Assembly: GCA_964393515.1 (NCBI GenBank)
Contig: CAYMTY010000003.1
Location: 42,002-106,001 of the forward strand
Reading direction: 5' to 3'
Source of the DNA: an uncultured Verrucomicrobiota bacterium
Lineage (GTDB): Bacteria; Verrucomicrobiota; Kiritimatiellia; CAIQIC01; Lenti-01
Length of the DNA: 64,000 nucleotides
The position numbers and the translations under genes are program-made. Below, piece after piece: positions 25,412 to 56,786 of the stretch (the stretch's first letter is position 1; each line of letters begins with the position of its first letter). The notes under the pieces are model-generated. The model ran no database searches, was not told the DNA's origin, and worked only from the letters and a program-made list of their open reading frames with translations.

Positions 25412-25424
25412 TCCATCCGGATGT

Positions 25425-25480
25425 TACCGGATTGTTACCGGAAATCCGCTCAAAAACATGCAAACGGTAACAATCCGGTA
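25425..25480. promoter_or_regulatory. Perfect 16-bp inverted repeat (TACCGGATTGTTACCG ... CGGTAACAATCCGGTA, 24-bp spacer) in the divergent promoter region
   Basis: Seen directly between the HK start (25411) and the phosphoesterase start (25526). Confidence 0.5.
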
Positions 25481-25525
25481 GCAATGAGATGGCAGGCTGG
25501 CCGCGGAAAACAAGGAGAACGGCCC

Positions 25526-28500: not shown

Positions 28501-28927
28501 CGGCACCCTGGCCGCCGCCGCGTCCGGCACCGCCGTCCGCCAGTTCCAGGTCTGGAACTACAACTGCGGATCCGACATGGAACGCAACATCTACTTCAAC
28601 GACCTCCAACTCGTCCGCCCCGAACCGGGCGGCGGGGAGGCCTACAGCACCGCCACCCTCCACGTCGTCCGCGACGCGGACGGCGAACCGGCGCCCGTCA
28701 TCACCGGCCTCGCGGCGAGCGGCGCGGAAGGCCTGTGCTGCGGCCTTGCGGAAAGCGTCGCCGGCGCCGCCTACGCCATCTATGCCACCGAAACCCTGGC
28801 CCCCACCCAGAACTGGCAGGTGGTCGCCGGCACCGTCCAGATCGGCACGGGCGGCGCGCTGGAACTGCGCCTCACAAACGGCCTCCCGGCGGTCGGCTAC
28901 TACCGCATCGGCTTCACGCCCCCGTGA
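25526..28927 (+). CDS. Large secreted metallophosphoesterase (purple acid phosphatase-like N-terminus) with CBM-like repeats and Ala/Gly-rich C-terminal region
   Basis: Signal peptide MKSIRFPPRMHIALLLAAACAAGSAEA; AGGAG RBS; metallophos motifs (GDxxDxG as GDVTDDG, GNHD, GHNHFY); repeated W-x-N-x-G-G-A-N/D-W modules. Confidence 0.75.
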   Translation: MKSIRFPPRMHIALLLAAACAAGSAEAALVRGPYLQMGHFTNRATVVWRTDSSADSAVDYGLTPAYGMTATGTSGYQHEVTLTGLGPGTTYFYRVRSGGVPLATNSFRSAKAPGAPFRIGVFSDAHQGGSAAIGNLLALVAPDLLLAAGDVTDDGLYSDLDNNLFSKMGAVLAAAPLYWTPGNHDVRDGFAACREAFVLPDNELSYSFEYADALIVSLNAEDLPGPAWLASTLATSSKPWKIVMFHEPAYSPDGGHGEHETIRDQYVPVMEQHGVQLTLSGHNHFYWRSAPIHGITHLISGPSGNRTRETGGIPCYSQWAVNGTAAQTFIVLDIAGTVLRIRTYDALGNCLDEAAVDRACPFALDGQLDAAAAQVTARGGGQTLWAAQSNGYLYVATQDAGEGQDAFLFLASAPDALTNAAPWGKAGTAPAHDAFLADENDNNYSRGFAEDGLAADVALVRTATPWCNGGVLEGVIDLNAYFGGAVPDSVFLAAALYANGAGGALSAASQCPAGNGDANLDAGEMFEIELADSGGPAGPAPAATFAPAAPADCGQLAVLFNAATSALATATTVTAFYHFSTNDDDWASAAMTRTGTNTFSVTFATLPDNAPQCEVCFTDGVNWENNGGANWQVAIRDCEAPQTVDGVTLVPGVPVAGHAVTVTYNPAGRPLAGAGALNLHRGYNRTEGWTPVPGVSMAPAGAEWTHTYTIPPAATEISLCFNDGTTWDNRGGADWIFAVVPSDLPPVPDGVVITNPAAATVHVAHATAQFACQGTAGTNLAGPLSWTNLATGGGGTFARESYWLQEIPLAPGDNEIRIAGVIAGTEAGSATAAVDQAAAYAAWTNGSAQGAGWSDGWACTVAGATAGHFLDAGSANCSAGNPAFGLWANGGATARARRSLAEPLQPGDTFSWQFDNNWIQDGGSAGFSLENAAGEPLLILYFLGGELAYKLQNGDPEIRDTGISWTGSGLAVAFTLDSETGYTLALNGAAFTGTLAAAASGTAVRQFQVWNYNCGSDMERNIYFNDLQLVRPEPGGGEAYSTATLHVVRDADGEPAPVITGLAASGAEGLCCGLAESVAGAAYAIYATETLAPTQNWQVVAGTVQIGTGGALELRLTNGLPAVGYYRIGFTPP

Positions 28928-33558: not shown

Positions 33559-33690
33559 ACGATCTATTATAATACATCGTTCCGGCACGAGTCATGGTTT
33601 CATGCGTATTCCAAAGGGATTTCCGGCGCTCGATCTGCGGTTGTTCGGAACCGGCCCAGGCCATCCAACCGATGTATTACAATAGATCGT
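33559..33690. repeat. AT-rich ~21-bp inverted repeat pair (ACGATCTATTATAATACATCG / CGATGTATTACAATAGATCGT) spaced ~90 bp apart
   Basis: Seen directly in the gpx upstream region, 3' of the EPS locus. Each arm contains a TATTATAATA-like palindrome with a TATAAT hexamer. Confidence 0.4.
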
Positions 33691-33729
33691 CGGCGCCGCC
33701 GGCCCGGCCGGGCGGCGGCGGACGGCAGG

Positions 33730-36700
33730 CTAGAAGTTGTACTGGAGGCCGAGCGTGAGATCGTGCTCGGAGTAGTTGCGCAGGAAATTGATGTTGAGGC
33801 CCCCGATGAGGTCGAGGTGCCGCCAGAGCCGCTGGCGGTAGGTCCCGCCGAGGCCGACGAAGGTGTCCCAGTCGGCCGCGGGGCCCGCGCCGGCATACCA
33901 CGTGCCATCGGATTCGGCCCGGGCCTTGAGGTTGCGCCAGGCGTCCATGTCCTCGGGCCGGCCCTTCTCGCTCTGCTGGCCGAGCCGGAGGTCGAACTGG
34001 AAGAAATAGTCCTGGTAGGCGCGGCGGAGGCGGACGACGCCGGCGAACCGGGTGTCCCAATAGGGCGACCAGTAGAGGTCGGATTTCTCGTCCATGGTGT
34101 AGGTGCCGGCCTCGAGGCCGCCCCAGACCCCCTGCTTCTCAAAGAGCTGCCAGAACGAACTGCCGAAGAGCTGGACCATGGCGTTGTCGTCGTCGTAGCT
34201 CAGGTAGCGGGCGTTGGCGGCGACATCCCAGCTGTCGGCAATCTTCCAGCGGGCGTTGAGGCCGAAGCCGTCGTAGACAATTTCAGCCCGGGCGGACGGG
34301 ACCAGGTCGTGGTCGTAGAGCGCGACGAGCTGGAGGGCACGGTACGGCTGCCAGCCCACGGTGAGGGCGCCGACGATTTCGTCCTCCTCCTGTTCGGCCG
34401 GACCGCCGGGATCGAGCCGGAGGATCTTCTGGCCGAGGCTGGCGGTCAGGGTGGCCGTGTCGTTGATGCGCAGGGTGAGCGCGCCGCGCAACTCCTCGAC
34501 TTCGGCGTCGTAGGCGTAGGTCTCGATCCGGTTGGTCTGGACCTTGTTGATGACGGTGGTCTCGGTGGTGGTGGTGGTGGTGGTGGAGCCTCCGTTTGTC
34601 GCCACGGTGGTGGTGGAGCTGCTCGTGGAGGTTTCCGGCTGCTCGATGGTGTACCAGATGTTGGAAGTGACGGTCTGCTCGATGGTGCCGGCGCGATAGG
34701 CCGCCTCGGCGCCCAGGACCGCGGTGAGGTTGAGGCCGGCGCGGGCCTCGCCGGAACGCTGGAGGATGTCCTTGTTGGACTTGTTTTCCCGGTAGGCGCC
34801 GGCCCCGTAGATGTTCGACGGGCGCAGGCGGTGCCGGCTGGTGCCGGCGCGGTCGGCCTCGTCGGCGCCGGCGGGGGCCTGGGGGGCGGGAAGGCGGTTG
34901 CGGGTGTAGGCCTCCAACTCGCGCAGGAGCCGTTCGGGATAGCCGTCGCGGCGCAGCAGTTCGATCTGCTGTTCGGCCAGGAACGGCCGGTCCATGAGGG
35001 TGGCGATCTCGGCGCGCAGGCGGCGGGCCATGAAGACCGGATGGTTGGCCAGCACCTGTTCGAGGACTTCGCCGGCGTCCTCGTCCCAGCCGGGCTCATA
35101 GCGGCGGATCAGGAGGGGGTTCTCGCCGGCGCAGGTGTAGCCGAAGCGGTCCACGATGAAACCGGCCTGGTATTCGCGGTCGGCCTCGTTCAAGAGGGCC
35201 CGGACGGGATTGAGCAGGGGGGCGACGTTGCTCCCCTCCTCCTGGCCGATTTCGCCGTAAGGATAGGCAACGGCCATGGGTTCGTCGGGCGCGAGGCCGA
35301 GATGCCGCTCGATGCGGGCGCGGCTTTCCGAAAACTCGTTGCGGACGCGGCGGCTCCACTCGCGGAGGGTTTCAAGGCGGTGGCGCTCCGGCAGCCAGAT
35401 CCGGTTGGGCAGGTTGAACACCTTCGGGGAGGGTTCCGGGCCAGCCGGCTGGTCGGTGTTGGCATGCATCAGGTGGCTGCCGATCTGCCAGACCCCGGTT
35501 TCCCGGTAGGCGCGGATCTCCTCCCAGGCGGCATACATCGGGGCGTTGAGTTCCTCGAGGCTGGTGATGACGAACATGCCAAAGGGGATGTTCAGTTCCT
35601 GCGCGACCGGCGTGCCGAGGCTGAAGGAGCTGCGCAAGCCGTCGTCGAAGGTGACGACGGCCACCTTGGCCGGGCGGCGGTCCGCGGGCTTGCGGTCGCG
35701 CCGTTTGCCGGTGAAGGCGTAGCGCACGTTATCCACCTGCCGGGCCAGCCACGGCTTGGGGCCCGGGCGGTCGGGAGGCGGGGCGTTCCGGGCGAGATAG
35801 TCGGGCAGGTCCTGCGGGGCGAGGAAGGTGAAGCCCGCCTGGCGCAGCGCGACCAGGTGCTCGCGCAGGCGGCGGGTGGAGGTCAGGGCCATCCATTCGC
35901 TTTCGGTGAGGCCGTGGTAGAGCAAGGTCAGCACGGCGCCGCGGTCGCCGGCCTCTTCGAGCCGGTCGAGCGCCGCCAGCGCCTCCTGGTAGCGGCCGCG
36001 CTGGACTTCCAGGCGGGCCAGTTCCAGAAAGCGGTAGGGGTTGTCGGGCTGAAAGTCGTCGTACAGGGCCTCGAGCGCCTGTTCGGCGGCGGTGAAGTCG
36101 CGTTCGAGCATGGCGATCTCGAAGCGGGTGCGCAGGGCCTGCTGGTTGATGGGGTTGAAGTCCCGCAGGATGCGGTCCACGGCCTGCCGGGCCTTGACGG
36201 GCTGGTGGGCCATGAGGGCGATCTGCGCGTACTGGTTGAGCCAGGGCACGTAGGTGGGGATGACGGCGAGGGCCTCCTCGTACTGGTCCAGGGCGAGGGT
36301 CAGGGGCCAGCGCTTGGGATTCTGCCGGTGCAGGGTCACGAGGCGCGCGCCGAGCCGCACCCGCAGCCGGGCGCGGACTTCGGGATCTTTCGCGTCCTTG
36401 ATCAAGCCCCGCAGCGACCGGACCATTTCGTCGGGGCGCTGGGAAATTTCGGCCAGGTCGGCGCGCAGGTTCATGACTTCCCACAGGGCGGGATCTTCGG
36501 CAAGGACGCGGCGGGCCTGTTCATCGGCCTCGGCGAGGCTGCCGACCAGCATCAGGGCGCGGGCGTATTCGGTGCCGAACGCGCGGTTGTCGGGAATCAC
36601 GGCGATGATGTCGGTCCAGAGGTCGAGGGAGTCCTCGTAGCGCTGGACCAGCGGGTAGAAGCGGGCGAGGTCCACCTTGACGTCATAGCGCTGGTCGTCC

Positions 36701-37344
36701 TCCGCGATCAGCTTTTCGAGGATGGGGATGGCCTCGTCGAGGTGGCCGAGGCGGAACAGGTTCTGGGCATACCAGTAGCGGATGTCGTAGTTCTGGGGAT
36801 CGAGGGCCAGGGAGGCGCGCAGATGCGTGTCGGCGGCGCGCCAGTCGTTGCGCAGCAGGGCCAGCTGGGCCAGCAGGCTATGGGCCTTGGCCGATTCGGG
36901 GCGCAGGACCAGGAACTGCTGCCAGAGGCGGTCGGCCTCGTTGGTCTGGCCGGAGTGGTAGTAGCTCCAGCCCAGGGCCTCCCAAACGGCCTCGACGGTC
37001 GGCAGCTTGTCGAGCACGTCTTCCAGGAGGGGAATGGCGGCGGGGTAGTCCTGCTCCTGCATGAGGACGATGGCCCGTTCGAGGGTGTCGTCGGCCGGCG
37101 GCGCCGCCGGGGTTTCGGGCGGCGCGTACTGGAGTTCGAAGGGCGCGCGCTCCTCGGCGCCGCGGCGCGTGCTGCGGACCAGGCGGTCCACGGCCTGGGC
37201 CGCCGCGCCGGCGGAATCCGTCGCGGCCGGCGGGGCGGGTTCCCGGGCCGGGGTACCGGCCGCCAGCGCCCCGCACGCCGCGAACCAGAACCACGCCGCG
37301 GGCCGGCGCCAGCCGCCGCTTCTGTTTCTGCAACCGGTTTTCAT
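33730..37344 (-). CDS. Fusion protein: signal peptide + long TPR array + polysaccharide deacetylase (CE4/NodB) domain + C-terminal OM beta-barrel (PgaA/PgaB-like export component)
   Basis: Many TPRs. NodB motif VVTFDDGLRSS...; C-terminal beta-strands ending ...LGLQYNF (aromatic C-terminus). ATGA overlap with the upstream SGNH gene. Confidence 0.7.
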   Translation of the reverse strand: MKTGCRNRSGGWRRPAAWFWFAACGALAAGTPAREPAPPAATDSAGAAAQAVDRLVRSTRRGAEERAPFELQYAPPETPAAPPADDTLERAIVLMQEQDYPAAIPLLEDVLDKLPTVEAVWEALGWSYYHSGQTNEADRLWQQFLVLRPESAKAHSLLAQLALLRNDWRAADTHLRASLALDPQNYDIRYWYAQNLFRLGHLDEAIPILEKLIAEDDQRYDVKVDLARFYPLVQRYEDSLDLWTDIIAVIPDNRAFGTEYARALMLVGSLAEADEQARRVLAEDPALWEVMNLRADLAEISQRPDEMVRSLRGLIKDAKDPEVRARLRVRLGARLVTLHRQNPKRWPLTLALDQYEEALAVIPTYVPWLNQYAQIALMAHQPVKARQAVDRILRDFNPINQQALRTRFEIAMLERDFTAAEQALEALYDDFQPDNPYRFLELARLEVQRGRYQEALAALDRLEEAGDRGAVLTLLYHGLTESEWMALTSTRRLREHLVALRQAGFTFLAPQDLPDYLARNAPPPDRPGPKPWLARQVDNVRYAFTGKRRDRKPADRRPAKVAVVTFDDGLRSSFSLGTPVAQELNIPFGMFVITSLEELNAPMYAAWEEIRAYRETGVWQIGSHLMHANTDQPAGPEPSPKVFNLPNRIWLPERHRLETLREWSRRVRNEFSESRARIERHLGLAPDEPMAVAYPYGEIGQEEGSNVAPLLNPVRALLNEADREYQAGFIVDRFGYTCAGENPLLIRRYEPGWDEDAGEVLEQVLANHPVFMARRLRAEIATLMDRPFLAEQQIELLRRDGYPERLLRELEAYTRNRLPAPQAPAGADEADRAGTSRHRLRPSNIYGAGAYRENKSNKDILQRSGEARAGLNLTAVLGAEAAYRAGTIEQTVTSNIWYTIEQPETSTSSSTTTVATNGGSTTTTTTTETTVINKVQTNRIETYAYDAEVEELRGALTLRINDTATLTASLGQKILRLDPGGPAEQEEDEIVGALTVGWQPYRALQLVALYDHDLVPSARAEIVYDGFGLNARWKIADSWDVAANARYLSYDDDNAMVQLFGSSFWQLFEKQGVWGGLEAGTYTMDEKSDLYWSPYWDTRFAGVVRLRRAYQDYFFQFDLRLGQQSEKGRPEDMDAWRNLKARAESDGTWYAGAGPAADWDTFVGLGGTYRQRLWRHLDLIGGLNINFLRNYSEHDLTLGLQYNF

Positions 37345-38084
37345 TTCCAGTACTCCTCGATCAGGGCCAGGGCCAGGATGCGGGCGCCATCCGGCGTGAG
37401 GTGGATGCCGTCGACATCCCGCACGCGGATGGCGGCGGCGGTCTGGGGATCCATCAGGCGTTCGGCGTAGCCGCCGGTGCGGCGGTCCGCCACCAGCCGG
37501 CTGAAATCGTGGGCGATGACCTGTGGCCGGCCGGCCGCCTGGGCCGTGACAAGCCCGTTCAAGTGCCGCGCGAAGCCGTCCATGGTGGCATCGCGCATGG
37601 GCGGCAGCAGCAGCCAGATGACATGCTCGCAGCCGCCGGCCCGCAGGCGGTCCAGCGCCTGGCCGGCGCGGCGGGAATATTCCGCGTCCCATTCGGGCGT
37701 GCCCGGTTCGAGCGGGGCCCCGCCCCCGGCCAGTTGCATCGGCTGGCGGTCGTTGGCGCCCAGCGCCACCACGGCCACCTTGGGCCGGTGGGCCGCGCAC
37801 AGTTCGTCGATTTTGGCCAGCCAGTCGAAGGCATCGAGCCGCGCCAGCCCCGTGCCAATCCCGGAAAAGGAGGCGGTTTGGATCCCCGGGAGGCGCGCCA
37901 GTTCCCGTTCCATGGCGAAGCCCGGCAGCTTCATCATCGAATCGCCGATCATCAGGACGGGCGATGTCGCCCCGGGCAGCGCCGCCAGCGCGCCCGTCGT
38001 CCACAGGGCCGCGGCCAGCGCCCCGCCCCACCCCGTCCGGTGCCGGCCGGGGCCGGTTCTCTGTTTCGATGTTGCGGTGTTCAT
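37341..38084 (-). CDS. SGNH/GDSL-family hydrolase/acyltransferase (AlgJ/AlgX/PatB-like)
   Basis: Signal peptide; GDSMM block I; GANDRQ block III. Confidence 0.6.
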   Translation of the reverse strand: MNTATSKQRTGPGRHRTGWGGALAAALWTTGALAALPGATSPVLMIGDSMMKLPGFAMERELARLPGIQTASFSGIGTGLARLDAFDWLAKIDELCAAHRPKVAVVALGANDRQPMQLAGGGAPLEPGTPEWDAEYSRRAGQALDRLRAGGCEHVIWLLLPPMRDATMDGFARHLNGLVTAQAAGRPQVIAHDFSRLVADRRTGGYAERLMDPQTAAAIRVRDVDGIHLTPDGARILALALIEEYWK

Positions 38085-38121
38085 AGAATGAAATCTTAGC
38101 GGAATCAGGGGGGGACAACAA

Positions 38122-38397
38122 TTAAAATGGCGGGCGTTCGGCGTTCACAGTTTTTCCGAGAGTGCGGGCGAGGAAGGCGCGGGGCTGGTCGAGGCCGAGG
38201 GCCGCACAGGCGCGGGCGACGGGTGCGCTAGCGGCGACCCAGAAGGACCGCACGGGACCGTAGGGCAGGATTTCGTTGTTCCGGTGCAGGGACGCGGCGT
38301 TCAGCGCCAGCGCCAGCGTGTAAAAGACGAGCAGGCCCGTCCAGACCCGGCCCAGCGGAATTTCGGCGCGAGGCGGGGATTCCAGGATTGGTTTCAT
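38122..38397 (-). CDS. Small single-TM protein between the MBOAT and SGNH genes
   Basis: ORF track; hydrophobic segment GLLVFYTLALALNAA; position within the acyltransferase module. Confidence 0.35.
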   Translation of the reverse strand: MKPILESPPRAEIPLGRVWTGLLVFYTLALALNAASLHRNNEILPYGPVRSFWVAASAPVARACAALGLDQPRAFLARTLGKTVNAERPPF

Positions 38398-38407
38398 GCT
38401 GAGCTCC

Positions 38408-39898
38408 TCAAAACTGAAAATAGATGAACGGGGCCACGCCTTCCGGGCCCAGGGCCAGGATTACGGTGAGCGCAACGGCCGCGGCCGCGCCCAGGGCCCA
38501 CGCCGGCCAGGCGGACAGCCGCCGCCACACCCGCCACAGGCGGTCGCCGTCGAAAAACTGCGTCAGGAAGCCCGCCGCCACCATGGCCAGCGCCAGCCCG
38601 CTCCACAGGGTCGCGGCCGGCACGGCCGACCGCCATTGCACGAGGCCCCGCAGCAGGGCCGCCGCGGTTTCGAGATTGCCGCCGCGGAACAGGATCCAGG
38701 AGAAGCACACCACGTGGAAGATCCAGATCCGCCCAAGCCAGGCGACGGCGGGATGGGCCGGCGGCGCGTTCCGCCGGGAGAGGCCCAGCCACTCGCGCGC
38801 CTTGCGTTCGCCGGCCAGATAGACCCCGTGGAATGCGCCCCACAGCAGGAAGGTCCAGGCCGCGCCATGCCACAGCCCGCCCAGCAGGAAGGTCAGGAAC
38901 AGGTTGAGATAGGTGCGCCCCGCCCCCCGCCGCGAGCCGCCCAGGGGGATGTAGAGGTAGTCGCGCAGCCAGGAGGACAGCGAGATGTGCCAGCGCCGCC
39001 AGAAGTCCTGCAGGGTCGTCGCGAAATACGGCGCGTTGAAGTTGCCGGGAAAGCGGAAACCCAGCAGCAGGGCCGTGCCGATGGCGATGTCGGAATAGGC
39101 CGAGAAATCGCAGTAGATCTGGACCGCGTAGGCGTAGACCGCCAGCAGCAGGTCGGGGCCGGCGTAGCGTTCCGGCCAGGCGAACACGGGGTCCGCCAGC
39201 CGCGTGGCCAGCCAGTTGGCCACGACGATCTTCTTGAACAGGCCGCTCAGAATGAGGAACAGGGCCCGGCCGGCCTCGAGCGGCGCGGCGCGGCCCGGCA
39301 TGGCCTCCATCTGCGGCACGAGCGCGGCGGCGCGCACGATGGGCCCCGCTACGAGCTGCGGGAAAAAGGCCAGGTAGTTCGCGAAATCGAGCCACGAGCG
39401 CGCCGGGGCGGCCTGGCGGCGGTGGACATCGAGCACGTAGCTCAGCGCCTGGAAGGTGAAAAACGAAATGCCCACCGGCAGGACAATCTGCGACAGCCAG
39501 GGATAGACGGTCTCCTGCACTGCCACCAGCCCGCCCACCGCCGCCGGCCCCAGCGCCCGGCACAAGGGCCGCAGCAGCGGAAACAGCGTGTCGGCGACAA
39601 GGAAGCCGGTGTATTTGAAGAACGCCAGCAGCCCCAGGTTGAAGCCGACGGTCGCCGCCAGCAGGCCGCGGCGCGGCTGGCCGGCCACCGCCCGCCGGTC
39701 GAGTTCCCGGGCGGCGGCATGGTTTAGCAGGGCCGAGCCCAGCAGCAGCAGCGCGAACTTCCAGCTCCAGAAGCCATAGAAGAACAGGCTGGCGCTGAGG
39801 AGAAACGCCTTGCGCACCCGCGGCCGCCCCGCCAGCGCCCAGTGCACCTGGAACACCAGGAAGAAAAAGACGGCGAAGGCGGTGGTCGGAAAAAGCAT
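38408..39898 (-). CDS. Membrane-bound O-acyltransferase (MBOAT; AlgI/DltB/PatA-like)
   Basis: Multi-TM protein with the conserved MBOAT His region (...WRRWHISLSSWLRDYLYIPLGG...). Confidence 0.85.
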   Translation of the reverse strand: MLFPTTAFAVFFFLVFQVHWALAGRPRVRKAFLLSASLFFYGFWSWKFALLLLGSALLNHAAARELDRRAVAGQPRRGLLAATVGFNLGLLAFFKYTGFLVADTLFPLLRPLCRALGPAAVGGLVAVQETVYPWLSQIVLPVGISFFTFQALSYVLDVHRRQAAPARSWLDFANYLAFFPQLVAGPIVRAAALVPQMEAMPGRAAPLEAGRALFLILSGLFKKIVVANWLATRLADPVFAWPERYAGPDLLLAVYAYAVQIYCDFSAYSDIAIGTALLLGFRFPGNFNAPYFATTLQDFWRRWHISLSSWLRDYLYIPLGGSRRGAGRTYLNLFLTFLLGGLWHGAAWTFLLWGAFHGVYLAGERKAREWLGLSRRNAPPAHPAVAWLGRIWIFHVVCFSWILFRGGNLETAAALLRGLVQWRSAVPAATLWSGLALAMVAAGFLTQFFDGDRLWRVWRRLSAWPAWALGAAAAVALTVILALGPEGVAPFIYFQF

Positions 39899-39924
39899 GG
39901 CGGCTCCGGTTCCGGTTTCTCTCG

Positions 39925-42900
39925 TCAGGGCGGCGGCGGCAGCGCGAGCCGCCCGTCGGGGCCCAGCAGGTAGAGGCGGGGCGCAGTCCGGTCATGGTCC
40001 GCCGGCGCCGGCGGGGCGTCCGGAGCCTGCAGGGCCACCGCCCAGTCCGCCCGGCTTGGCGGAATCAGCACGCTGCCGAACGGGAGCTCGCGGAGCCGGA
40101 TTTTCTCGCCCGGCTTGGGCAGCAGGCCGTCGTTGGCCTCCGGCCGGGCCACCTGTTCGCCGCGGGATTCCTCGCCCGCGCGCGGCGTGTTCCACAGCGC
40201 GGCCTCGGTCTGCAGCACGAGGACGTTGGCCGGGTGCTCCTCGAGGGCGGCCGCCAGGGCAGCGAGCCACGGGGCGGGCGCGGGCGAGCGCCGCTTGAGC
40301 ACGGCGCCGGCCAGGCGGTTCGTCCGGATGAACTCCACCACCCGGGCCGGATCGATGTCGCCGTCGTAGGACAGATCAATGGCCGGCAGCAGGCGGATCT
40401 GGTGGAAGGCCGAGAACATCCGCAGCACTTCCGTCCCGGCCGGCAGGCCGGCCGGCAGGCTGCCGTCGGGATTCTGGAATACCCAGGCCGGCACGAGGGC
40501 GGAGAAGCCGCCCACGAACGGCCGCAGGCTGGCGACCTGCGCATTCGGATCGCCGGGCGGGACCAGCACCAGCGCCGGCGGCTGCGGTTCGCAGTCCATG
40601 CGCAGGATGCGCGCGCGCGCCACGCCCAGGTCGAACGCGAACGGCGCGATGCCCCACCAGCCGTAGGCGACCTCCGGGGGAATCCCCAGCGGGGCGTCGA
40701 ATATTTCGCTGCCGTTGACGAACCCGCGGACGCCGTCGCCGCGCACCTCGAGCCGCATCTTCAGGCCGCCGGGCGGGCGCACCCACGGGCGCACCTGGTG
40801 GGCCAGCATTTCGCCCGCGGCCCAGGCCTGCAGGTGGATGAACCCGTCCTCGTCGAAACCGAAGCGGATCATCGCGCGCGAACTGCGCCGGGCGTAGAGC
40901 CAGAAGAAGCCCTGCGATTCGTCCACCAGCACTTCCAGAAAGCCGTCGCGCAGGAGTTCCGAGCGCCGCAGGCGCAGGTAGGTCTCGGCCTGGTTGACGG
41001 CGGCGCGCAGCTCGTAGCGGCCGCGGTCCACCAGGCGGATCCCGGAAGAGGCGATCCAGCCGTCGGAGAGCTGGCCGGACTGGAAATCGTCGGACACGGG
41101 CTGCTCCAGCGGCAGGAAGTTCCCGTAGATTTCCCGCTGGCGGTCGTTGCGGCCGCGGGCCTGCGTGCGGATGAAATCGAAGAAGACGCCGGATTCGGGG
41201 TAGGTCAGCAGCTCCATTTCCAGCAGGGCGTGTCCGAACGGGATCCGGGCGTCGGGGGCGCGGGCCAGTTCCAGCAGGCCGTGCAGGGTCTGGTAGCGTT
41301 CCGCGGGGGTGTCCTGCAGGTTGAGGAGAGCGACCCGGGCCGGCAGATTCTGCGGCGCCTCGCGCACGAGGGTGGCGACCATGTCGCGAGCTTCGGTGCG
41401 GCGGCGGTGGCGGTCGAGCCACTGGGCCTGGGCGATCAGGATGTCGGGGTTTTCGGGAAAGATCCGGGCATAGAGGTTGAGTTGCTCGCGCGCCTCGTCG
41501 TCGCGGGCCATTTTCTCGAGGAGTTCCGCGCGGCGGACCACGAGCTGGATCTGGCCGGGGCTGGCTTCCAGGCTGCGGGTGAAGAATTCGAGGGCCCGCG
41601 GCAGGTCTCCCCGCTGAGAATGGGCCTTGCCGATCAGCGACAGCGCCTCCGCGCTCTGCGGATCCTCCTGCAGCCAGCGCTCCCAGCTGGCGATGGCCCG
41701 GCCGTAGTCGCCGTCCTGGTAGGCCAGGTAGCCTTCGCGGCGGAGGGCGTCCTGGCGGGCCTTGGGCGAGAGCTCCGCCAGCGGCAGCTGGCGCGTCGCC
41801 AGCTGGTAGTAGAGGTTCAGGTGCATGTCGGCCGCCGGCGGGGCCGGCACTTCCTCGGTCACCAGCACTTCCAGCCCGGCGTTTTCCAGCGCCGGGGCCA
41901 GCGCGGGGGTGTCGACGGCGATCACCGCGCCGGGGAACAGGGCGGCGATGGACGCGAACGAGGCCAGCCGCGCCACCGCGGCCGGGAATTGAATGGCCAG
42001 TTTCATGTTCCGTTCCTTTGTCTGTTGATGAACGCCTTGCAGCCAGGGGACGAGGGTGGCGATGTCCGCCGCAGCCACTTCCCGGCAGTCCAGATGGATG
42101 CCGTCCACGGCCATTGCGGCGGCCTCCTGGACCGGCAGTTCCGGCGGGATCTGTACGGCCAGGGCCGCGGACCGCAGGATGATGCGCGGCAGGATCCGGA
42201 TGCTGTGGATCCGGGCGTAGGTCCGGAGCGTGGGCTCGTCCCATTTCGGCAGCACCAGCGGGATGGCCTTGACCACGTCCATCCAGGGCGGGCTCACCGC
42301 CCCCAGCCGGTGGGCCTGCCGGCCGAGTTCCCCCATCAGGTAGAGCGGCGCGAAGGCCGGATCGGCTGGCCACTGCTTGAGCACGTGGTGCGGCCGGGGA
42401 AACTCCAGCGAGAGCACCTGCGCCGCGGCGGCGCCCGGTGCAGGGTCCCACACCTCCAGGCCGAACAGGCCGGGCTGGACGTCGCCCAGCAGGTCCAGCG
42501 GCTCCTTCAGCAGCATTTCGCCGTCGAGCAGCGCGAACAGGTTGCGGCCATGAATCGAGAGCTCGAGTTCGCGGATCTTGCCCGGCGCCGCGCCGGCGTC
42601 GCGAACGACCGCCTGCGTGAACTCCGCGGCGCCATACACCTTCTGGTTGACCCAGCAGTGGCCTTCCGTATCGAAAATGATGCGGACTCCGGCCTCGCCG
42701 CCGGGCAGCGCGTGCAGCCGGAGGCCGAACTGGCCGGCGACCACGCGGAATTTCATGCGCAGGGTGAAATCGTCGAACAGGTCGCTGGCGATCATCCAGG
42801 CCAGGGCCCCCGTGGTGGGCGGGAACGGGGTGTCCCGGGCCGCTTCGGGACTGACGGCTTTCAGCCACAGGGTCCCGTCGGGATATTCGGTCAGGCCCCA

Positions 42901-44055
42901 GTCCGTCAGCCAGCGGGCCGGGGCCAGCGGCTGCGTCAGGTTCCAGGGCAGGACAGCCCAGCCGGATTCCACGGTGTCCAAAAACTGCTCGAGGGACCAG
43001 TCCGGCCGCACCCGCAGGCGGTTGAGTATCCGCGGGTCGGTGTGGCGCGTGTTCAGCAGGAAGGGGCCCTGGGTAAAGCCCAGGCCGTAGAACCGGCCCA
43101 CTTCGCCCAGGTTCAGCACCCGCGTCGGCACGCCGCGGGGGTCGTACTGTCCGTAGTCGCCGTAGGGGAACGCAAAGGCCAGCGGCGACTGGTCCATGCC
43201 GGTCTTGAATTCGGCGGTCATTTGTTCGTGGTCGGCGCGGATCCGGGCGAGGAACTCCTCCGGCCGCTCCAGGCGCTTCTCGGCGGGGAACCACCGGGGC
43301 GTGGAGAAGAAGTTGCCGGTTTCGCCGGCGGGGCCGGCCGGGATGCGCTGGAAGCCCGCAAAGGATTCCGCGCCGATGTCCCAGGTTTCGGACCGCGCCA
43401 TGTCGCGCAGGATGGGCCACCGCAGCGCGCCCGGCTCCCGGTTGCGGATCGCGTCGGCGCGCACGAACATGACGGCCTTCCAGCGGTGGGCCCGGAGGAT
43501 GTCGCGGGTCTCCAGGTAGGAGCTGCGCTTGGCCTGGCCCAGGGTGACGAGGACGGCCTTGCGCGGCAGACGCCGGCCCGTCTCGTAGAACGCCTTCACG
43601 TCCGCCAGGCCGATGGGATTGTAGCCCCGCTCGCGCAGGGCCTGGATGTGCTGGCGGAACTGTTCGCGGCTGACCTCCTCGGGACCCTGCACCTTGCCGG
43701 CGCTGACGCCGCCGTAGGCCAGCGCGAGAAAGCTGTCCGCATCGCGCGGGCCGGTGGTTGCGGGCTTGAAGCGCAGCCGCTGGTAGATCGTCCGCGCCGG
43801 CACCCACAGCGCCACCAGCACGCAGATGCCCGCCAGCAGGTAGAGCCAGGCGCGCAGGTTGCGGTCGGCCCGCACCGGCTGCGGCCGCGCCCAGCCCGGC
43901 GGCGGGGCCGGCGGCGGCGCGGGGGGCGGCAGCGGATCCGGACCGGCCGCGGGGCTGGCCGGGACGACGGGCGGCGGCGGCGCGGGAGCGGCGGCCGGGG
44001 CGGAAAAATCTTCCGGGGCGCCGGCGGGGGGGATTGGGCGGAGCGGCCGGTTCAT
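39925..44055 (-). CDS. Large membrane-anchored multidomain protein: Pro-rich N-terminus + TM + polysaccharide deacetylase (CE4) + TIM-barrel glycoside-hydrolase-like region + TPR repeats (PgaB/PelA-like)
   Basis: TM LRAWLYLLAGICVLVALWVP; NodB-like region (VLVTLGQAKRSS...AVMFVRAD...); TPRs (YLAYQDGDYGRAIASWERWLQEDPQSAEAL...). ATGA overlap with the GT2 gene. Confidence 0.65.
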   Translation of the reverse strand: MNRPLRPIPPAGAPEDFSAPAAAPAPPPPVVPASPAAGPDPLPPPAPPPAPPPGWARPQPVRADRNLRAWLYLLAGICVLVALWVPARTIYQRLRFKPATTGPRDADSFLALAYGGVSAGKVQGPEEVSREQFRQHIQALRERGYNPIGLADVKAFYETGRRLPRKAVLVTLGQAKRSSYLETRDILRAHRWKAVMFVRADAIRNREPGALRWPILRDMARSETWDIGAESFAGFQRIPAGPAGETGNFFSTPRWFPAEKRLERPEEFLARIRADHEQMTAEFKTGMDQSPLAFAFPYGDYGQYDPRGVPTRVLNLGEVGRFYGLGFTQGPFLLNTRHTDPRILNRLRVRPDWSLEQFLDTVESGWAVLPWNLTQPLAPARWLTDWGLTEYPDGTLWLKAVSPEAARDTPFPPTTGALAWMIASDLFDDFTLRMKFRVVAGQFGLRLHALPGGEAGVRIIFDTEGHCWVNQKVYGAAEFTQAVVRDAGAAPGKIRELELSIHGRNLFALLDGEMLLKEPLDLLGDVQPGLFGLEVWDPAPGAAAAQVLSLEFPRPHHVLKQWPADPAFAPLYLMGELGRQAHRLGAVSPPWMDVVKAIPLVLPKWDEPTLRTYARIHSIRILPRIILRSAALAVQIPPELPVQEAAAMAVDGIHLDCREVAAADIATLVPWLQGVHQQTKERNMKLAIQFPAAVARLASFASIAALFPGAVIAVDTPALAPALENAGLEVLVTEEVPAPPAADMHLNLYYQLATRQLPLAELSPKARQDALRREGYLAYQDGDYGRAIASWERWLQEDPQSAEALSLIGKAHSQRGDLPRALEFFTRSLEASPGQIQLVVRRAELLEKMARDDEAREQLNLYARIFPENPDILIAQAQWLDRHRRRTEARDMVATLVREAPQNLPARVALLNLQDTPAERYQTLHGLLELARAPDARIPFGHALLEMELLTYPESGVFFDFIRTQARGRNDRQREIYGNFLPLEQPVSDDFQSGQLSDGWIASSGIRLVDRGRYELRAAVNQAETYLRLRRSELLRDGFLEVLVDESQGFFWLYARRSSRAMIRFGFDEDGFIHLQAWAAGEMLAHQVRPWVRPPGGLKMRLEVRGDGVRGFVNGSEIFDAPLGIPPEVAYGWWGIAPFAFDLGVARARILRMDCEPQPPALVLVPPGDPNAQVASLRPFVGGFSALVPAWVFQNPDGSLPAGLPAGTEVLRMFSAFHQIRLLPAIDLSYDGDIDPARVVEFIRTNRLAGAVLKRRSPAPAPWLAALAAALEEHPANVLVLQTEAALWNTPRAGEESRGEQVARPEANDGLLPKPGEKIRLRELPFGSVLIPPSRADWAVALQAPDAPPAPADHDRTAPRLYLLGPDGRLALPPPP

Positions 44056-45575
44056 CCGCGGGTCCCCCAGTGCTTACCGCGCACGGTGGCCATGGCCCAG
44101 TAGATCTGCCAGCTGAAGAACGCCATGTAGCTGAGCGTGTAGAGGAAGCCCGCCCACCAGTGGCGGCGGCCGGTCCGCTCCCAGTAGTGGAGCGTCCACA
44201 CCGCGGTGATGGCGCCGACCCCCAGCAGGTAGGACCAGGCCAGGTTGGCCCCGCCCGCCAGATAGGCCATCACCGGCGCCACCACGAGTGCGGAGATCAT
44301 GACCACGGGCTCGATGATCGGCATCCACATCATCGCGTACCAGGACAGGGCCGGCACCGGATGCTTGCGCCACATCCAGCGGCCCACCTTCACGATCTCG
44401 CGCAGGTAGGAGCGCGCCCAGCGCGCCTGCTGCCGCGTGTACTGCTGCCAGCCGTCCGGCGCGATCGTCGTCGCCAGCGCCTGGTCGTGGTAGACGACCT
44501 TGTAGTCGCGCAGGATCAGGTTCGTCAGGCTCCGGTCGTCGCCGAAATTGCCGTATTCACCCATCACCTTCGCATTCAGCCACTCGTCCAACACGTGCAG
44601 CACGCACACCCGCCGGTAGGCCGAGAAGCAGCCCGGCAGGCAGCTGACGCAGCCGCTCACGCTCTCCGCTGCCTTCATCACCTTGTAGGAAAAGAAGTAC
44701 CGGACGTCCTGCATGCGGGTCAGGAGGTTGGCCTGCGCGTTTTCCACGTCGCAATGCCCGCTGACGCCGCCGACGGCCGGATCGGTGAAGCCCTGCATCA
44801 GCTTCTGGATCGAGCCCGGGAAGATGAAGGTGTCCGAATCCACGCACACCATGTATTCGCCGCGCCCCAGCAGCACGCCCACCGCCCAGGCGTGGCTGAG
44901 CCCGCGGTTGGCGGCGAAATCCACCACCACCAGCTGCGGATGCCGCGTCTGCGCCGCCAGCATTTCCGCCAGCGTGCGGTCCGTCGAACCGTCGTTGACG
45001 ACCACGGCCTCGAGCTTGTCTGCCGGATAGCGGGCCGCGAAGATGCGTTCGATCGTCTGCCGGATCACCCGCTCCTCGTTCATGCAGGGCACCAGCACCG
45101 TCACGGTCGGTTCGTATTTCTGGTCCGGCGGCGGCACGTACATCGCGGCGATCAGGAAGCGCGACACGACGAACAGGCCCGCCACCAGCGAGTAGATGCT
45201 CACCAGCGGCTGGTAGAAGTAGTTCCCCGCGCTGCGCAGCTGCATGAACACCGCCGTCGCCAGCATCAGGATCGCCACCAGCAGGATCAGGGCCGCCAGC
45301 CACTTCGGCGGCCGGCGATACAGCTTCGCCATCCGGGCCCGCGCCACTTCCAGCGAGGGATAAGCGGCCGGCGGCGCCAGCGGCACCTCCGCCACGCTGC
45401 GCGCCAACGGCTTCCGGCAGTAGGGGCAGGTCACCGGCGCCGGCGTGCCATGCACATGCACCGTCACGCCGCAGGCAACGCACTGGCAACGCGTGATCCG
45501 CGCCGTCTGGACCTCTGGTCCGCCCTGTTCTGGCTTGTGCTCTGCTTCCATCGCGTTTATGAAATGATTGAACAT
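44052..45575 (-). CDS. Processive family-2 glycosyltransferase (PgaC/IcaA/NodC-like polysaccharide synthase) with N-terminal zinc-ribbon
   Basis: D, DxD (VDSD), and Q(QA)RW (QQARWARS) motifs; multiple TM helices; CxxC...CxxC N-terminus. Confidence 0.85.
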   Translation of the reverse strand: MFNHFINAMEAEHKPEQGGPEVQTARITRCQCVACGVTVHVHGTPAPVTCPYCRKPLARSVAEVPLAPPAAYPSLEVARARMAKLYRRPPKWLAALILLVAILMLATAVFMQLRSAGNYFYQPLVSIYSLVAGLFVVSRFLIAAMYVPPPDQKYEPTVTVLVPCMNEERVIRQTIERIFAARYPADKLEAVVVNDGSTDRTLAEMLAAQTRHPQLVVVDFAANRGLSHAWAVGVLLGRGEYMVCVDSDTFIFPGSIQKLMQGFTDPAVGGVSGHCDVENAQANLLTRMQDVRYFFSYKVMKAAESVSGCVSCLPGCFSAYRRVCVLHVLDEWLNAKVMGEYGNFGDDRSLTNLILRDYKVVYHDQALATTIAPDGWQQYTRQQARWARSYLREIVKVGRWMWRKHPVPALSWYAMMWMPIIEPVVMISALVVAPVMAYLAGGANLAWSYLLGVGAITAVWTLHYWERTGRRHWWAGFLYTLSYMAFFSWQIYWAMATVRGKHWGTRG

Positions 45576-45772
45576 TATACATTATCTTGGTCTGCTAAAG
45601 TAGAAAATAATAGGAAATTAGTAGAGTAAATCAAAAATCGGCTTTACCCCCTTTCTGGATTCAGGTTGCGTCCGCGGTTCGGCCGGTGGAAACCCGGCGG
45701 GCTCCCCGGGGCTCCGTTGACAGAGCCGGTCTGTGCGGATAAGCTGGGGTACTTCGAACGGAGGAAACAAAC

Positions 45773-46153
45773 ATGGCGAACATTCTGATCATTGACGACG
45801 ACAAGGCAGTCCGGGATTACCTCGCCACGCTGGTTTCCCGCTTGAACCATCAGGCTTTCCTCGCGGCCACTTGCGCCGAAGGCCTCGCCCAGATGGCCGA
45901 TCCGGCCATCGAAATCATCATCGCCGACATCTACCTGCCGGACACCCCGCCGCTCGATGAATGGATCGACCAGCTGAAGGCCCAGGCCGCCGGCCGCCCA
46001 CTCATCCTGATCACCGGTGAACCTTCGGAGGCGCTCAACGCCAAAGCCCAGAGCGGCGAAATCATGGCCTTTCTCACCAAGCCCTTCGAACTGGCCTTCA
46101 TCAAGGGCCTGCTGGCCCAGGCCCTGAAAATCCTGGCCCACCGGGAGAAGTAG
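45773..46153 (+). CDS. Stand-alone CheY-like response-regulator receiver domain
   Basis: DD pair (IIDDDK), phospho-acceptor D (IIIADIYLPD), T/S and K (TKPF) all present. Confidence 0.8.
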   Translation: MANILIIDDDKAVRDYLATLVSRLNHQAFLAATCAEGLAQMADPAIEIIIADIYLPDTPPLDEWIDQLKAQAAGRPLILITGEPSEALNAKAQSGEIMAFLTKPFELAFIKGLLAQALKILAHREK

Positions 46154-46167
46154 CGCGGGAACGGCCC

Positions 46168-46911
46168 ATGATCGACAAGACCCGACTCGGCATCCCCTTC
46201 CTGGACGACCACTTCGGGGGCATCTACCGCAAACGTCCCGCCTTGTGCGTCGGACGCCTGGGCAGCGGCAAGACCATCGCCGCGCTCCATGCTCTGCTGC
46301 AGAGCGTGCAAGAGGGCGAACGGGGCCTGATGCTCTCCGCCTGGCGGGCCCAGGACCTTGTCAGCGTCGCCGCCAATCTGGGCCTGCCCCTGGCCGCGGC
46401 CGTCGCCCAGGGCCGCGTCATCCTGCTCGAATACACCAACATCATGCCCTCCCCGGAGTTCGAGCAGAACCTCACCCTGCCGCCGGGCAGCTTCATGGAG
46501 TTCCAGAACATCATTGAAGCCAACGGCATCAGCCGCGTGGTCATCGATACCATCCTGCCGTGGGTCGCCATCCCGCAGGAGGACAAGCTCGCCCAGCATG
46601 TCTATTCCTTCGTCCACGCCATGGAGCGGATGGGCGTCACCAGCGTGTTCACCCTGCCCCGGCCCGCCTCGGCCCTGGCCTTCACCCTCCGAAACCTGGT
46701 CGAAGACCTCGTGCCCGTCGCCGTCACCCTGGATGTGGACGCCGGCGGCCGCCATACCCTTCTGGTGAACAAGTTCCTCGGCAGCGAAACCCTGCCTCCG
46801 CCCGTTTCCTTCTCCATCGTCCACGGCATGGGCATCGTTCCGGCCGCCGAACAGCCGCCCACCCCCGCCCCGCGCGCGCCGATCCGGTTCGCCGCCGCCT
46901 TCCCCCCCTGA
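46168..46911 (+). CDS. KaiC/RecA-superfamily single-domain ATPase
   Basis: GIPFLDDHFGGI... followed by Walker A GRLGSGKT and Walker B VVIDTI; KaiC-like layout. Confidence 0.6.
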   Translation: MIDKTRLGIPFLDDHFGGIYRKRPALCVGRLGSGKTIAALHALLQSVQEGERGLMLSAWRAQDLVSVAANLGLPLAAAVAQGRVILLEYTNIMPSPEFEQNLTLPPGSFMEFQNIIEANGISRVVIDTILPWVAIPQEDKLAQHVYSFVHAMERMGVTSVFTLPRPASALAFTLRNLVEDLVPVAVTLDVDAGGRHTLLVNKFLGSETLPPPVSFSIVHGMGIVPAAEQPPTPAPRAPIRFAAAFPP

Positions 46912-46937
46912 CGTGCGAGGATCGCGACAAGGACGCC

Positions 46938-47801
46938 ATGTACGCCGACTATTGGAATCTGAAGGGCAATCCGTTCCTCAATGTCATCGATCCGCGCTTC
47001 TGGTTTTCCAGCGAGCCGCACGAGGAAGCCATCGCCCGCTTCTGCTTCCTGGCCGAAAACGGCCGGCTGGCCGGCGTACTGACCGGCCCCTACGGCGTCG
47101 GCAAATCCGCCGTCCTCAAAACCGTCGCCGCCCGCCTCGAAGCCGGCCGCCGGCCGGTCCTCCGCCTGGATGCCATTCCCGGCGGCCAACTGCCCATGGC
47201 CCGCCAGATCCTCGCCAGCCTGCGGCTGGATTGCGCCGCCACGAACCTGCCGGAAGCCCTGATGAGCTTCTGGCAGGCCACCCAATACCGCGCCGACAGC
47301 CTGGTCCGCACCGTGCTGTGCTTGGACGAAGCCCACCAGCTCGCCGCCGACAACGGCCTCGCCCTCGTCCACTTCCTGACCAACCTCCGCCTCGTCAACC
47401 GCAAGACCCAGGTCGAGGAGCCGTTCTTCACCATCCTGCTCGCCGGGGCGCCCGAGCTCCTGCCCGCCTTGCAAACCCTGCCCTCCCTCCGGGAACGCAT
47501 CCAGATCGTCTACGAGCTGCCGCCGCTCACCGCCCCCCTCACTTCCGCCTACATCCAACACCATATGCGTGCCGTCGGCGGCGATATCTGGAGCTTCGCC
47601 GAAGACGCACTCGCCGCCATCTTCCGCCTTTCCGGAGGCCTGCCCCGGCGCATCAACCTCTTGTGCGACACCGCCCTCCTGCTGGGCTTCGCCGCCAAAG
47701 CCCCCCAAGTCACGCCAGCCATTGTGGCCCAGGCCGCCGCCGATGTCGGCCTCACCTCCCTCCCGCCCCCCGAACCCGTCCAACCCCGGAGCTGCCCATG
47801 A
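46938..47801 (+). CDS. ExeA/GspA/MshM-like AAA ATPase (PEP-CTERM-locus secretion ATPase type)
   Basis: N-terminal MYADYWNLKGNPF (ExeA-like FGL..PF motif); Walker A GPYGVGKS; Walker B LCLDEAHQL. Confidence 0.7.
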   Translation: MYADYWNLKGNPFLNVIDPRFWFSSEPHEEAIARFCFLAENGRLAGVLTGPYGVGKSAVLKTVAARLEAGRRPVLRLDAIPGGQLPMARQILASLRLDCAATNLPEALMSFWQATQYRADSLVRTVLCLDEAHQLAADNGLALVHFLTNLRLVNRKTQVEEPFFTILLAGAPELLPALQTLPSLRERIQIVYELPPLTAPLTSAYIQHHMRAVGGDIWSFAEDALAAIFRLSGGLPRRINLLCDTALLLGFAAKAPQVTPAIVAQAAADVGLTSLPPPEPVQPRSCP

Positions 47802-48121
47802 CGGAATGGAGCGAACTGTTTCTCAATCCCGTGACGGTCATTGCCATCCTGCTGGCGCTTTTCTTCGTAGCCATGACCTACTTCCGCCATCTCGGCGTGA
47901 AACACGCCCGCCAGGAACAGAACCGCGGCGGACACAAGCCCTACCAGGTCACGAATCCCTATGCCCCGCCGGCGCCTGTTTCCGCCGCCCCGCTCGACGC
48001 TCCCGCCGCCCCGCAACGGCTGGATCAAGCCCCGCCCCGAAAGGTGTTCCGCCAGATCGGCCGGGATCCGGCCGTCACCGGCGCCCGGGCAGGCGACTCC
48101 TCGGGCTACGTTTGGGAGTAG
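47798..48121 (+). CDS. Small single-TM proline-rich protein (ATGA-coupled to the ExeA-like gene)
   Basis: ORF track frame; TM VTVIAILLALFFVAMTYF. Confidence 0.4.
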   Translation: MTEWSELFLNPVTVIAILLALFFVAMTYFRHLGVKHARQEQNRGGHKPYQVTNPYAPPAPVSAAPLDAPAAPQRLDQAPPRKVFRQIGRDPAVTGARAGDSSGYVWE

Positions 48122-48128
48122 GCCCGCC

Positions 48129-51378: not shown

Positions 51379-51665
51379 CTCCGCTTTCCCGCCCGCCGTC
51401 CGCAGGACGTGGATGCCGGGGGTTTCTTTTGGATATTGACGGCGTCCCGCGTAAAAATAACCTGCGGATTTTTCGGAGATGCCGCTTCGCGGACGACCCG
51501 AGCAGGACTCCCGTCCGCGAGCGGTCGGCCTCAAAGCGGCAGAACGAAAAAGACGCGGGTTGGTTTTTACGCCCGACAAAATCCGAAAGAAATCCCCGCC
51601 CCTTCCCCCTCCGCTCCACCCCGCACTCCAGCCAACGCCGCCACCCCGCCGCCGCCTGACCCGCC

Positions 51666-55124: not shown

Positions 55125-55158
55125 GCGCTTCCTCCAAAGAAATGCCCCACCAGTCTAT

Positions 55159-55992: not shown

Positions 55993-56000
55993 CGCCGGCT

Positions 56001-56594: not shown

Positions 56595-56674
56595 TGTCCC
56601 GAGATTGACTTTCATGCATGGATAATAGATATAAGCGTGCATGAATGTCAATTCGACTTTTGCCTCCGCCGCGC

Positions 56675-56786
56675 AAACCCGCCCGTTGCTCGACGACCTC
56701 GAAAAGGCCTATACCCCGCTCTGGTTCGCCGAAAGCCTCCCCCGCGGCCTGCTGGACATCCATTCCCGCGGCTTCGAACCCATGCG
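56675..56786. repeat. 112-bp direct repeat, right copy (displaced original 3' end of the GH20 gene)
   Basis: Identical to 53281-53392. Confidence 0.85.

Follow-up and report, generated by a model that had tools for sequence, protein, structure and literature searches.

The stretch of DNA analysed here, referred to as the window, comprises 64,000 nucleotides of contig CAYMTY010000003.1 from an uncultured Verrucomicrobiota bacterium of the class Kiritimatiellia, and the element under study is a cluster of six co-directional minus-strand genes (33730-45575) that probably serves to build, modify and export a polysaccharide. Owing to a G+C content of about 68%, open reading frames are abundant on both strands of the window, and the six genes are picked out by their G+C content at third codon positions (0.85-0.91). 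A first-pass annotation, made from the sequence alone, had described a hybrid exopolysaccharide locus of exactly this extent. The six genes are confirmed, searches of Pfam, NCBIfam and PDB bear out most of the domain calls, including the labels given to the MBOAT protein, the SGNH protein and the TPR and CE4 parts of the last protein, and the same set and order of genes recurs in related genomes. The extent was drawn too small, as a conserved divergent operon continues the locus through 45773-50303. The features are as follows, with BIG and OMP as short names for the two largest proteins:

44052-45575, minus strand: GT2 processive synthase, 507 amino acids
39925-44055, minus strand: BIG, a single-pass inner-membrane protein, 1,376 amino acids
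38408-39898, minus strand: MBOAT acyltransferase, PatA/AlgI/DltB-like, 496 amino acids
38122-38397, minus strand: small protein with one transmembrane helix, 91 amino acids
37341-38084, minus strand: predicted periplasmic SGNH O-acetyltransferase of the DUF459/PatB family, 247 amino acids
33730-37344, minus strand: OMP, a TPR-CE4-beta-barrel outer-membrane export and modification protein, 1,204 amino acids
45607-45634, minus strand: sigma-70-like promoter match (a consensus match only) upstream of the GT2 gene, within the 197 bp that separate it from the divergent operon
45773-46153, plus strand: single-domain (receiver-only) response regulator (Pfam Response_reg)
46168-46911, plus strand: KaiC/RecA-like ATPase, 247 amino acids (76 bits for the KaiC ATPase family of Pfam; under the cutoffs of the NCBIfam KaiC models)
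46938-47801, plus strand: AAA ATPase of the ExeA type, similar to the one associated with XrtA/PEP-CTERM (110 bits for TIGR03015, short of its cutoff; AAA_22)
47961-50303, plus strand: protein with a C-terminal glycosyl-hydrolase-like 10 (GHL10) domain (Pfam GHL10, 52 bits; DUF4015), start codon uncertain

The OMP gene begins with MKTG at 37344 rather than at 37335, and a database protein of 100% identity likewise has 1,204 residues. Overlaps of start and stop codons (ATGA), previously noted at several junctions, occur at two of them, GT2/BIG (44052-44055) and SGNH/OMP (37341-37344), while the remaining three junctions of the six-gene block are gaps of 10-37 nucleotides. Within 33600-46200 the promoter-like match upstream of the GT2 gene is the only one, and none falls inside the block, which argues, if weakly, for a single operon.

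Synteny, assessed by tblastn of the window's proteins against 80 fetched loci, indicates that the cluster is not a chance assembly, since dozens of related genomes have the same genes in the same order. Homologs of the synthase with 52-84% identity come almost entirely from genomes labelled Kiritimatiellia, Lentisphaerae or Verrucomicrobiota, all of them bacteria of the Planctomycetes-Verrucomicrobia-Chlamydiae (PVC) group, and their carriers include the isolate 'Kiritimatiellaeota bacterium B1221'. The six genes are syntenic in about 70 species-level Kiritimatiellia/PVC genomes. BIG directly follows GT2 in 69 of the 72 loci with at least 1.5 kb of downstream sequence, a count that includes two loci where the two genes overlap. 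The MBOAT, SGNH and OMP genes co-occur in 32 loci, colinear and compact in all but one (31/32), and this block usually stands right after BIG, being inverted in L041, L044, L063, L065 and L078 and located upstream in L077. On the divergent side, 40 of the 62 loci with enough upstream DNA contain the response-regulator gene together with the KaiC-like one, and the ExeA-type ATPase and GHL10 genes are syntenic in 39 and 32 loci, respectively; it is this conservation of the divergent operon with GT2 that extends the functional unit to approximately 33730-50303.

Several neighbours were considered as members of the locus and excluded as not syntenic, namely the downstream glutathione peroxidase, permease and thiD/thiE genes and the upstream MscS and GH20 genes beyond 50303. 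The GH20 gene (beta-N-acetylhexosaminidase family; 51660-53420) lies 1.4 kb past the conserved locus and is probably unrelated, given its lack of synteny in the related loci. Paralogs of GT2 that have no BIG partner and share 56-64% identity (L054 9977-13018, also L053; L076 9827-11515) stand in other contexts and were treated as uninformative. In the Planctomycetota-labelled genomes (L053/L054), the GT2 paralog is fused to a C-terminal extension of about 500 residues with no Pfam match, near chemotaxis genes.

The synthase carries an N-terminal zinc ribbon (C32, C35, C50, C53), two N-terminal transmembrane helices and a GT-A domain, has the motifs DSD, GDDRSLTN and QQARWARSYLRE, and ends in WGTRG. 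Across 35 homologs, little or no variation is seen in the zinc ribbon (CxxC...CPYC), DSD, GDDRSLTN, QQARWARSYLRE and WGTRG. The earlier description of a GT2 enzyme with a QxxRW motif (here QQARW, conserved to the same degree) and a zinc ribbon stands on the Pfam, NCBIfam and PDB searches as well as on conservation. Its designation as PgaC-like does not. The top Pfam match is Chitin_synth_2 (96 bits), with the GT2 family also matching. Among NCBIfam models, all far below their cutoffs, NodC scores best (TIGR04242, 157 bits against a cutoff of 550), ahead of PgaC/IcaA (TIGR03937, 124 against 422) and CelA (45), and membership of either the PgaC or the NodC family was rejected on these scores. 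Against PDB, the family profile retrieves hyaluronan synthases as the nearest solved relatives (87-104 bits, the best at 104 and 98), then chitin synthases (44) and, marginally, the cellulose synthase BcsA (20), and no PgaCD-type chain is among the matches. The motifs DxD, G(D/E)DR, Q(Q/R)xRW and (S/W)GTR, together with the best similarity, are those of class I hyaluronan synthase (HAS), NodC and chitin synthase (CHS), and on these sequence grounds the enzyme is assigned to that clade rather than to the PgaC-like synthases. Family searches of the locus proteins found no NodA- or NodB-type cytoplasmic genes. Likewise, a check for a cyclic di-GMP (c-di-GMP) receptor with Pfam and NCBIfam matched neither PgaD nor PilZ to any protein of the locus, the divergent operon included.

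WGTRG forms the exact end of the synthase. Alignment places it at residue 508 of the 601 residues of Xenopus HAS1 and at residue 459 of the about 570 of the Chlorella-virus HAS, so the protein lacks the last membrane helices of those enzymes. As a speculation, the N-terminal helix of the translationally coupled BIG might take the place of these absent helices.

BIG consists of a proline-rich N-terminus, a transmembrane helix (65-91), a PgaB-like CE4 domain (about 81-303), a beta-sandwich (382-561), an alpha/beta domain (570-735), a TPR region (745-978), a second beta-sandwich (987-1165) and a second alpha/beta domain (1170-1363). The CE4 and TPR regions of the first-pass annotation are thus retained, while its TIM-barrel hydrolase-like region is replaced by two units, each a CBM66-like beta-sandwich plus an alpha/beta domain, arranged around the TPR block in the predicted model; no hydrolase match was obtained, either by sequence or by the fold of that model. 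The locus had also been credited with two deacetylase proteins, and for BIG this has to be withdrawn. In comparison with E. coli PgaB, H55 is replaced by G115, D114/D115 by G173/Q174, H184 by E230 and H189 by F235, so that nothing is left of the catalytic set, which comprises one catalytic His, two Asp and two metal-binding His; it is kept in none of 52 close homologs. As a control, 150 representatives drawn from a library of 1.84 billion proteins were scored by the same method: the HDDHH pentad is present in most PgaB-like relatives and in none of about 41 BIG-type proteins, defined as having at least 1,200 residues and a CE4 domain at the N-terminus. BIG is accordingly read as a pseudo-deacetylase scaffold and not as a hydrolase. 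A separate observation from the same material is that many proteins of about 500-540 residues (P0317-P0392) match the CE4 domain and first beta-sandwich of BIG and keep the full HDDHH set, a PgaB-like deacetylase-plus-sandwich family that is apparently widespread.

The acylation genes are of a different type from that first supposed. The MBOAT protein matches Pfam MBOAT (113 bits) and the DltB model (172 bits, below cutoff), and its catalytic His (WRRWH) and terminal FIYFQF (codons at 38411-38428, minus strand), an instance of the FXYXXF acyl-shuttle motif, are present in 38 of 38 homologs. The SGNH protein matches DUF459 at 158 bits against a cutoff of 27, as well as GDSL families, and its only PDB matches are PatB (7tjb, 7trr, 8tlb) and one DUF459 protein (8gr2), which replaces the former AlgI/AlgJ-like label with the DUF459/PatB family. 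Its GDS (Ser49) and DGIH (Asp225/His228) motifs are intact and invariant in 35-36 homologs, and no AlgJ, AlgX or AlgF family match was found in the locus proteins by Pfam or NCBIfam. The two enzymes thus carry the hallmarks of a PatA/PatB-type pair, the MBOAT His with FXYXXF on one side and a DUF459/PatB SGNH protein with its Ser-Asp-His triad on the other. In such pairs, PatA places an acetyl group on itself, at the Tyr of the FXYXXF motif near its C-terminus (PMC12148441), and PatB moves acetyl from acetyl-Tyr, supplied in peptide donors, to peptidoglycan or to chitopentaose and other chitooligosaccharides (PMC12148441, PMC9487903). The SGNH protein falls short of the PatB equivalog (NF045704) at 79 bits against 580, and this score, together with co-inheritance with the exporter gene, suggests a PatAB-type module retargeted to the polymer.

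Between the two genes lies the 91-residue protein, which has a hydrophobic segment at residues 18-37, is conserved in this position in about 26 related loci and has no family match in Pfam or NCBIfam. It was considered as a DltX analogue and the proposal was dropped, the MBOAT protein already carrying FIYFQF and the small protein being without a family match. It also carries a PYGP motif (gene at 38122-38397), and PatA/PatB systems have been reported without such a microprotein.

At the end of the block, OMP combines a signal sequence, TPRs (about 79-473), a PgaB-like CE4 domain (about 470-800) and a beta-barrel of 16-18 strands (843-1204) ending in QYNF. Pfam recovers the TPRs and Polysacc_deac_1, and the CE4 part resembles PgaB (23.5) and IcaB (22.6). 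Conserved in it are LLYHG, which holds the catalytic His, the TFDD motif and the first of the two metal-binding His. The early call of a TPR-CE4-beta-barrel export protein is thereby upheld, with a near-intact CE4 set, and the order of an N-terminal TPR region and a C-terminal barrel of the 16-strand type agrees with the PgaA/PelB/BcsC porins. To judge from these residues, the deacetylase is likely, though not certain, to be active, because the second metal ligand is Asn rather than His. At the N-terminus (37270-37344), a Cys within the signal sequence ...WFWFAACGALAAG possibly belongs to a lipobox, which might make the exporter a lipoprotein.

Two distant loci (L081/L082, with L081 6553-13597, and L083 1-6860) contain a core triad without the acetylation genes, namely a GT2 synthase of 40-42% identity also ending in HWGTR, a membrane protein of 580-620 residues that has a dead CE4 domain and corresponds by homology to the first half of BIG, and also a TPR-CE4-porin. 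L081 further encodes a second GT2 and a UDP-GlcNAc 2-epimerase, and in L083 a GH18 gene (chitinase family) lies in convergent orientation. In each of the three versions of the system, the catalytic CE4 motifs are kept in the outer-membrane protein and missing from the inner-membrane protein. These relatives suggest that the triad is the conserved machine and that O-acetylation is a module added in Kiritimatiellia.

The domain identities, active-site states, folds and synteny described above are observed features. With an inner-membrane synthase, a TPR scaffold, a beta-barrel and modifying enzymes, the locus has the general composition of a synthase-dependent secretion system, and the initial view of a single locus for polysaccharide synthesis, modification and export holds in the presence of the TPR-porin, the CE4 deacetylase and the MBOAT/SGNH pair. 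We consider it moderately probable that 33730-50303 encodes such a system for an N-acetylhexosamine (HexNAc) exopolysaccharide or capsule, conserved across the class Kiritimatiellia and operating as follows. GT2 would polymerise one or more UDP-sugars, most likely UDP-GlcNAc into a beta-1,4 chitin-like chain, and thread the chain through the inner membrane. BIG would take over in the periplasm, its pseudo-deacetylase domain binding the chain without cleaving it, its two CBM66-like sandwiches holding the glycan and its TPR block docking onto the exporter. The PatA-like MBOAT protein would charge the Tyr in its C-terminal FIYFQF with an acetyl group taken from acetyl-CoA, and the PatB-family SGNH enzyme would pass it to a sugar hydroxyl, probably O-6. 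The CE4 domain of OMP would then strip some of the N-acetyl groups and its PgaA/PelB/BcsC-type barrel would export the polymer. From the divergent operon, the GHL10 hydrolase would trim or clear the product, and the response-regulator, KaiC-like and ExeA-like proteins would stand in for a c-di-GMP receptor as factors of control or assembly.

For this system we infer the sugar, the linkage, the position of acetylation, the protein contacts and the regulation. A chitin- or chitosan-like beta-1,4-GlcNAc chain is favoured by the clade of the synthase, by the high NodC score, by the fact that both families of modifying enzymes act on GlcNAc-type residues of beta-1,4 glycans and by the GH18 neighbour in a related locus; all of this support is indirect, and the polymer is probably of this kind. 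The more general product named at the outset, a partly de-N-acetylated and O-acylated beta-linked HexNAc polymer, is still the most reasonable expectation. As for the trimming activity, to our knowledge each known synthase-dependent system has a hydrolase or lyase, and the GHL10 protein, which gave no match in a PDB sequence search, is a likely candidate for that role. A kinship with E. coli DigH, presumably also a GHL10 protein, was considered but not used as evidence; DigH is documented as a hydrolase of denuded beta-1,4 peptidoglycan glycans (PMC12288456).

Several points weigh against the proposed system. Sugar and linkage cannot be read from the sequence; moreover, the best solved relatives of the synthase make hyaluronan, a heteropolymer, and the locus contains no genes for UDP-sugar supply. 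The operon structure is deduced from gene spacing and one promoter-like match, and the tie of the divergent operon to the system consists of synteny, in 40 of 62 loci. The position of the second metal ligand in the CE4 domain of OMP, Asn in the window protein, alternates between Asn and His among homologs. In addition, the proposed mechanism assigns no role to the alpha/beta domains of BIG or to the 91-residue protein.

Among the alternatives, the main rival is a glycosaminoglycan-like heteropolymer akin to hyaluronan or heparosan, whose de-N-acetylated GlcN might be N-sulfated, a modification that requires prior de-N-acetylation. The nearest solved relatives of GT2 are hyaluronan synthases, JGI labels its homologs 'hyaluronan synthase', and strains of Pontiella, a cultured member of Kiritimatiellia, secrete an exopolysaccharide that contains hexosamine and is N-sulfated (PMC7356697). 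Nevertheless, the Pontiella study points to another gene cluster (PMC7356697), the NodC model outscores every other curated family, and neither a UDP-glucose dehydrogenase nor a sulfotransferase occurs in the conserved locus or the rest of the window, so that we regard such a product as unlikely. Even less probable is a divergent pga-type system for poly-N-acetylglucosamine (PNAG), in which the synthase would make beta-1,6-GlcNAc and two large proteins would share out between them what PgaB and PgaA do. The PgaC score lies far under 422 and under the 157 of NodC, while GDDR, the terminal WGTR and the PDB ranking group GT2 with hyaluronan and chitin synthases. PgaD and the GH153 domain are absent from the locus, a GH18 gene stands beside one related locus, and PatB-type enzymes 6-O-acetylate beta-1,4 HexNAc glycans (PMC9487903), at an O-6 position that the linkage of PNAG would presumably occupy.

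A cluster devoted in part to the cell wall, with a true PatA/PatB pair, CE4 domains acting on peptidoglycan and the synthase as an unrelated neighbour, appears very improbable. Peptidoglycan is the sole proven substrate of the DUF459/PatB family, and peptidoglycan enzymes such as a D-Ala-D-Ala carboxypeptidase (318-1505) are present; yet the PatB equivalog model gives 79 where its cutoff is 580, the MBOAT-small protein-SGNH set always accompanies the TPR-CE4-porin gene, to which it is coupled in translation, and the CE4 domain is fused to a polysaccharide-export barrel.

Outside the locus, the window contains further regions of possible interest. A very large gene at 2799-8918 encodes an RHS-repeat/YD-shell protein of about 2,040 residues, possibly a polymorphic toxin, and a gene at 25385-28927 encodes a 1,180-residue protein with a purple-acid-phosphatase N-terminal domain and a calcineurin-like phosphoesterase domain followed by a long, unassigned C-terminal region. 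At 54000-60127 the G+C content falls to 0.55-0.62, which may mark an acquired defence or mobile island, and the gene at 57758-60127 combines a REase-ARP restriction-endonuclease domain with DUF4300.

Should the proposed HexNAc secretion system be borne out, it would add one synthase-dependent system whose polymerase comes from the hyaluronan/chitin-synthase lineage. It would also illustrate how a dead deacetylase can be retained as a polymer-handling module, an active one fused straight to an export pore and a PatA/PatB-type acetyl shuttle turned to the service of an exopolysaccharide. Anaerobic digesters, the rumen and sediments commonly harbour Kiritimatiellia, and a class-wide surface polymer would therefore bear on flocculation and on host and phage interactions, as well as on the hexosamine-rich exopolysaccharides of cultured Kiritimatiellia. 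Its practical value would lie in a bacterial route to chitosan-like or O-acetyl-chitin polymers.

A survey of the field recognises five types of synthase-dependent system and does not mention PVC bacteria (PMC7112194). Set beside it, a possible but tentative extension is that the locus represents an unrecognised sixth Gram-negative synthase-dependent system, ancestral to Kiritimatiellia and with simpler relatives elsewhere, that would secrete an O-acetylated, partly de-N-acetylated beta-1,4-GlcNAc polymer, with a pseudo-deacetylase co-polymerase guiding the chain and with KaiC-like and response-regulator control instead of c-di-GMP. In agreement with the first impression, no description of this architecture was found in the literature, the coverage of which was incomplete, so that its absence is not proof. 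The system is not categorically new, because all its parts are members of known families and its general logic follows the known synthase-dependent scheme.

Compared with PgaABCD of E. coli and BpsABCD, the synthase stands outside the PgaC family and both PgaD and a c-di-GMP site are missing. PgaB joins an active CE4 domain to a C-terminal GH153 domain, whereas here no GH153 domain occurs, the presumably active CE4 domain is fused into the porin protein, a second, dead one resides in a giant inner-membrane partner, and O-acetylation genes are present. The Pel system (PelA-G) differs in its GT4 polymerase (PelF), which works with PelD, PelE and PelG, in contrast to the GT2 synthase of this locus; PelA is moreover soluble and encoded as a protein of its own, and an MBOAT/SGNH pair is missing from Pel. 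With class I HAS, NodC and chitin synthases, GT2 shares DxD, GDDR, Q(Q/R)xRW and WGTR as well as the predicted coupling of polymerisation to translocation. HAS and CHS, however, act alone, and NodC works with the cytoplasmic NodA and NodB and an ABC exporter; unlike the Xenopus and Chlorella-virus HAS, the synthase of the locus ends at WGTRG, without their C-terminal helices, and it bears an N-terminal zinc ribbon. We know of no enzyme of the HAS/NodC/chitin-synthase lineage that is coupled to a TPR/beta-barrel outer-membrane exporter.

The acetylation module resembles PatA/PatB in its MBOAT protein, with catalytic His and FXYXXF Tyr shuttle, and in its DUF459 SGNH protein with a Ser-His-Asp triad, and departs from that pair in being co-inherited with an exopolysaccharide export gene and in having the gene of the additional 91-residue membrane protein in between. 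Like alginate AlgI/J/F/X and WssF-I of acetylated cellulose, it places MBOAT-based O-acetylation on a synthase-dependent system, yet its transferase is of the PatB/DUF459 type instead of AlgJ/AlgX and no AlgF/WssG homolog is present. BIG recalls BcsB as a membrane-anchored periplasmic partner encoded right after the synthase, and BcsB, like BIG, contains in two copies a unit made of a beta-sandwich of carbohydrate-binding type and an alpha/beta domain. Altogether, what is unusual in the locus is the pairing of a HAS/NodC/CHS-type synthase with a PgaA-type porin, the division into one pseudo-deacetylase and one presumably active deacetylase, the fusion of deacetylase and porin, the PatAB module, and the KaiC-like, response-regulator and ExeA-like neighbours that stand in place of c-di-GMP control.

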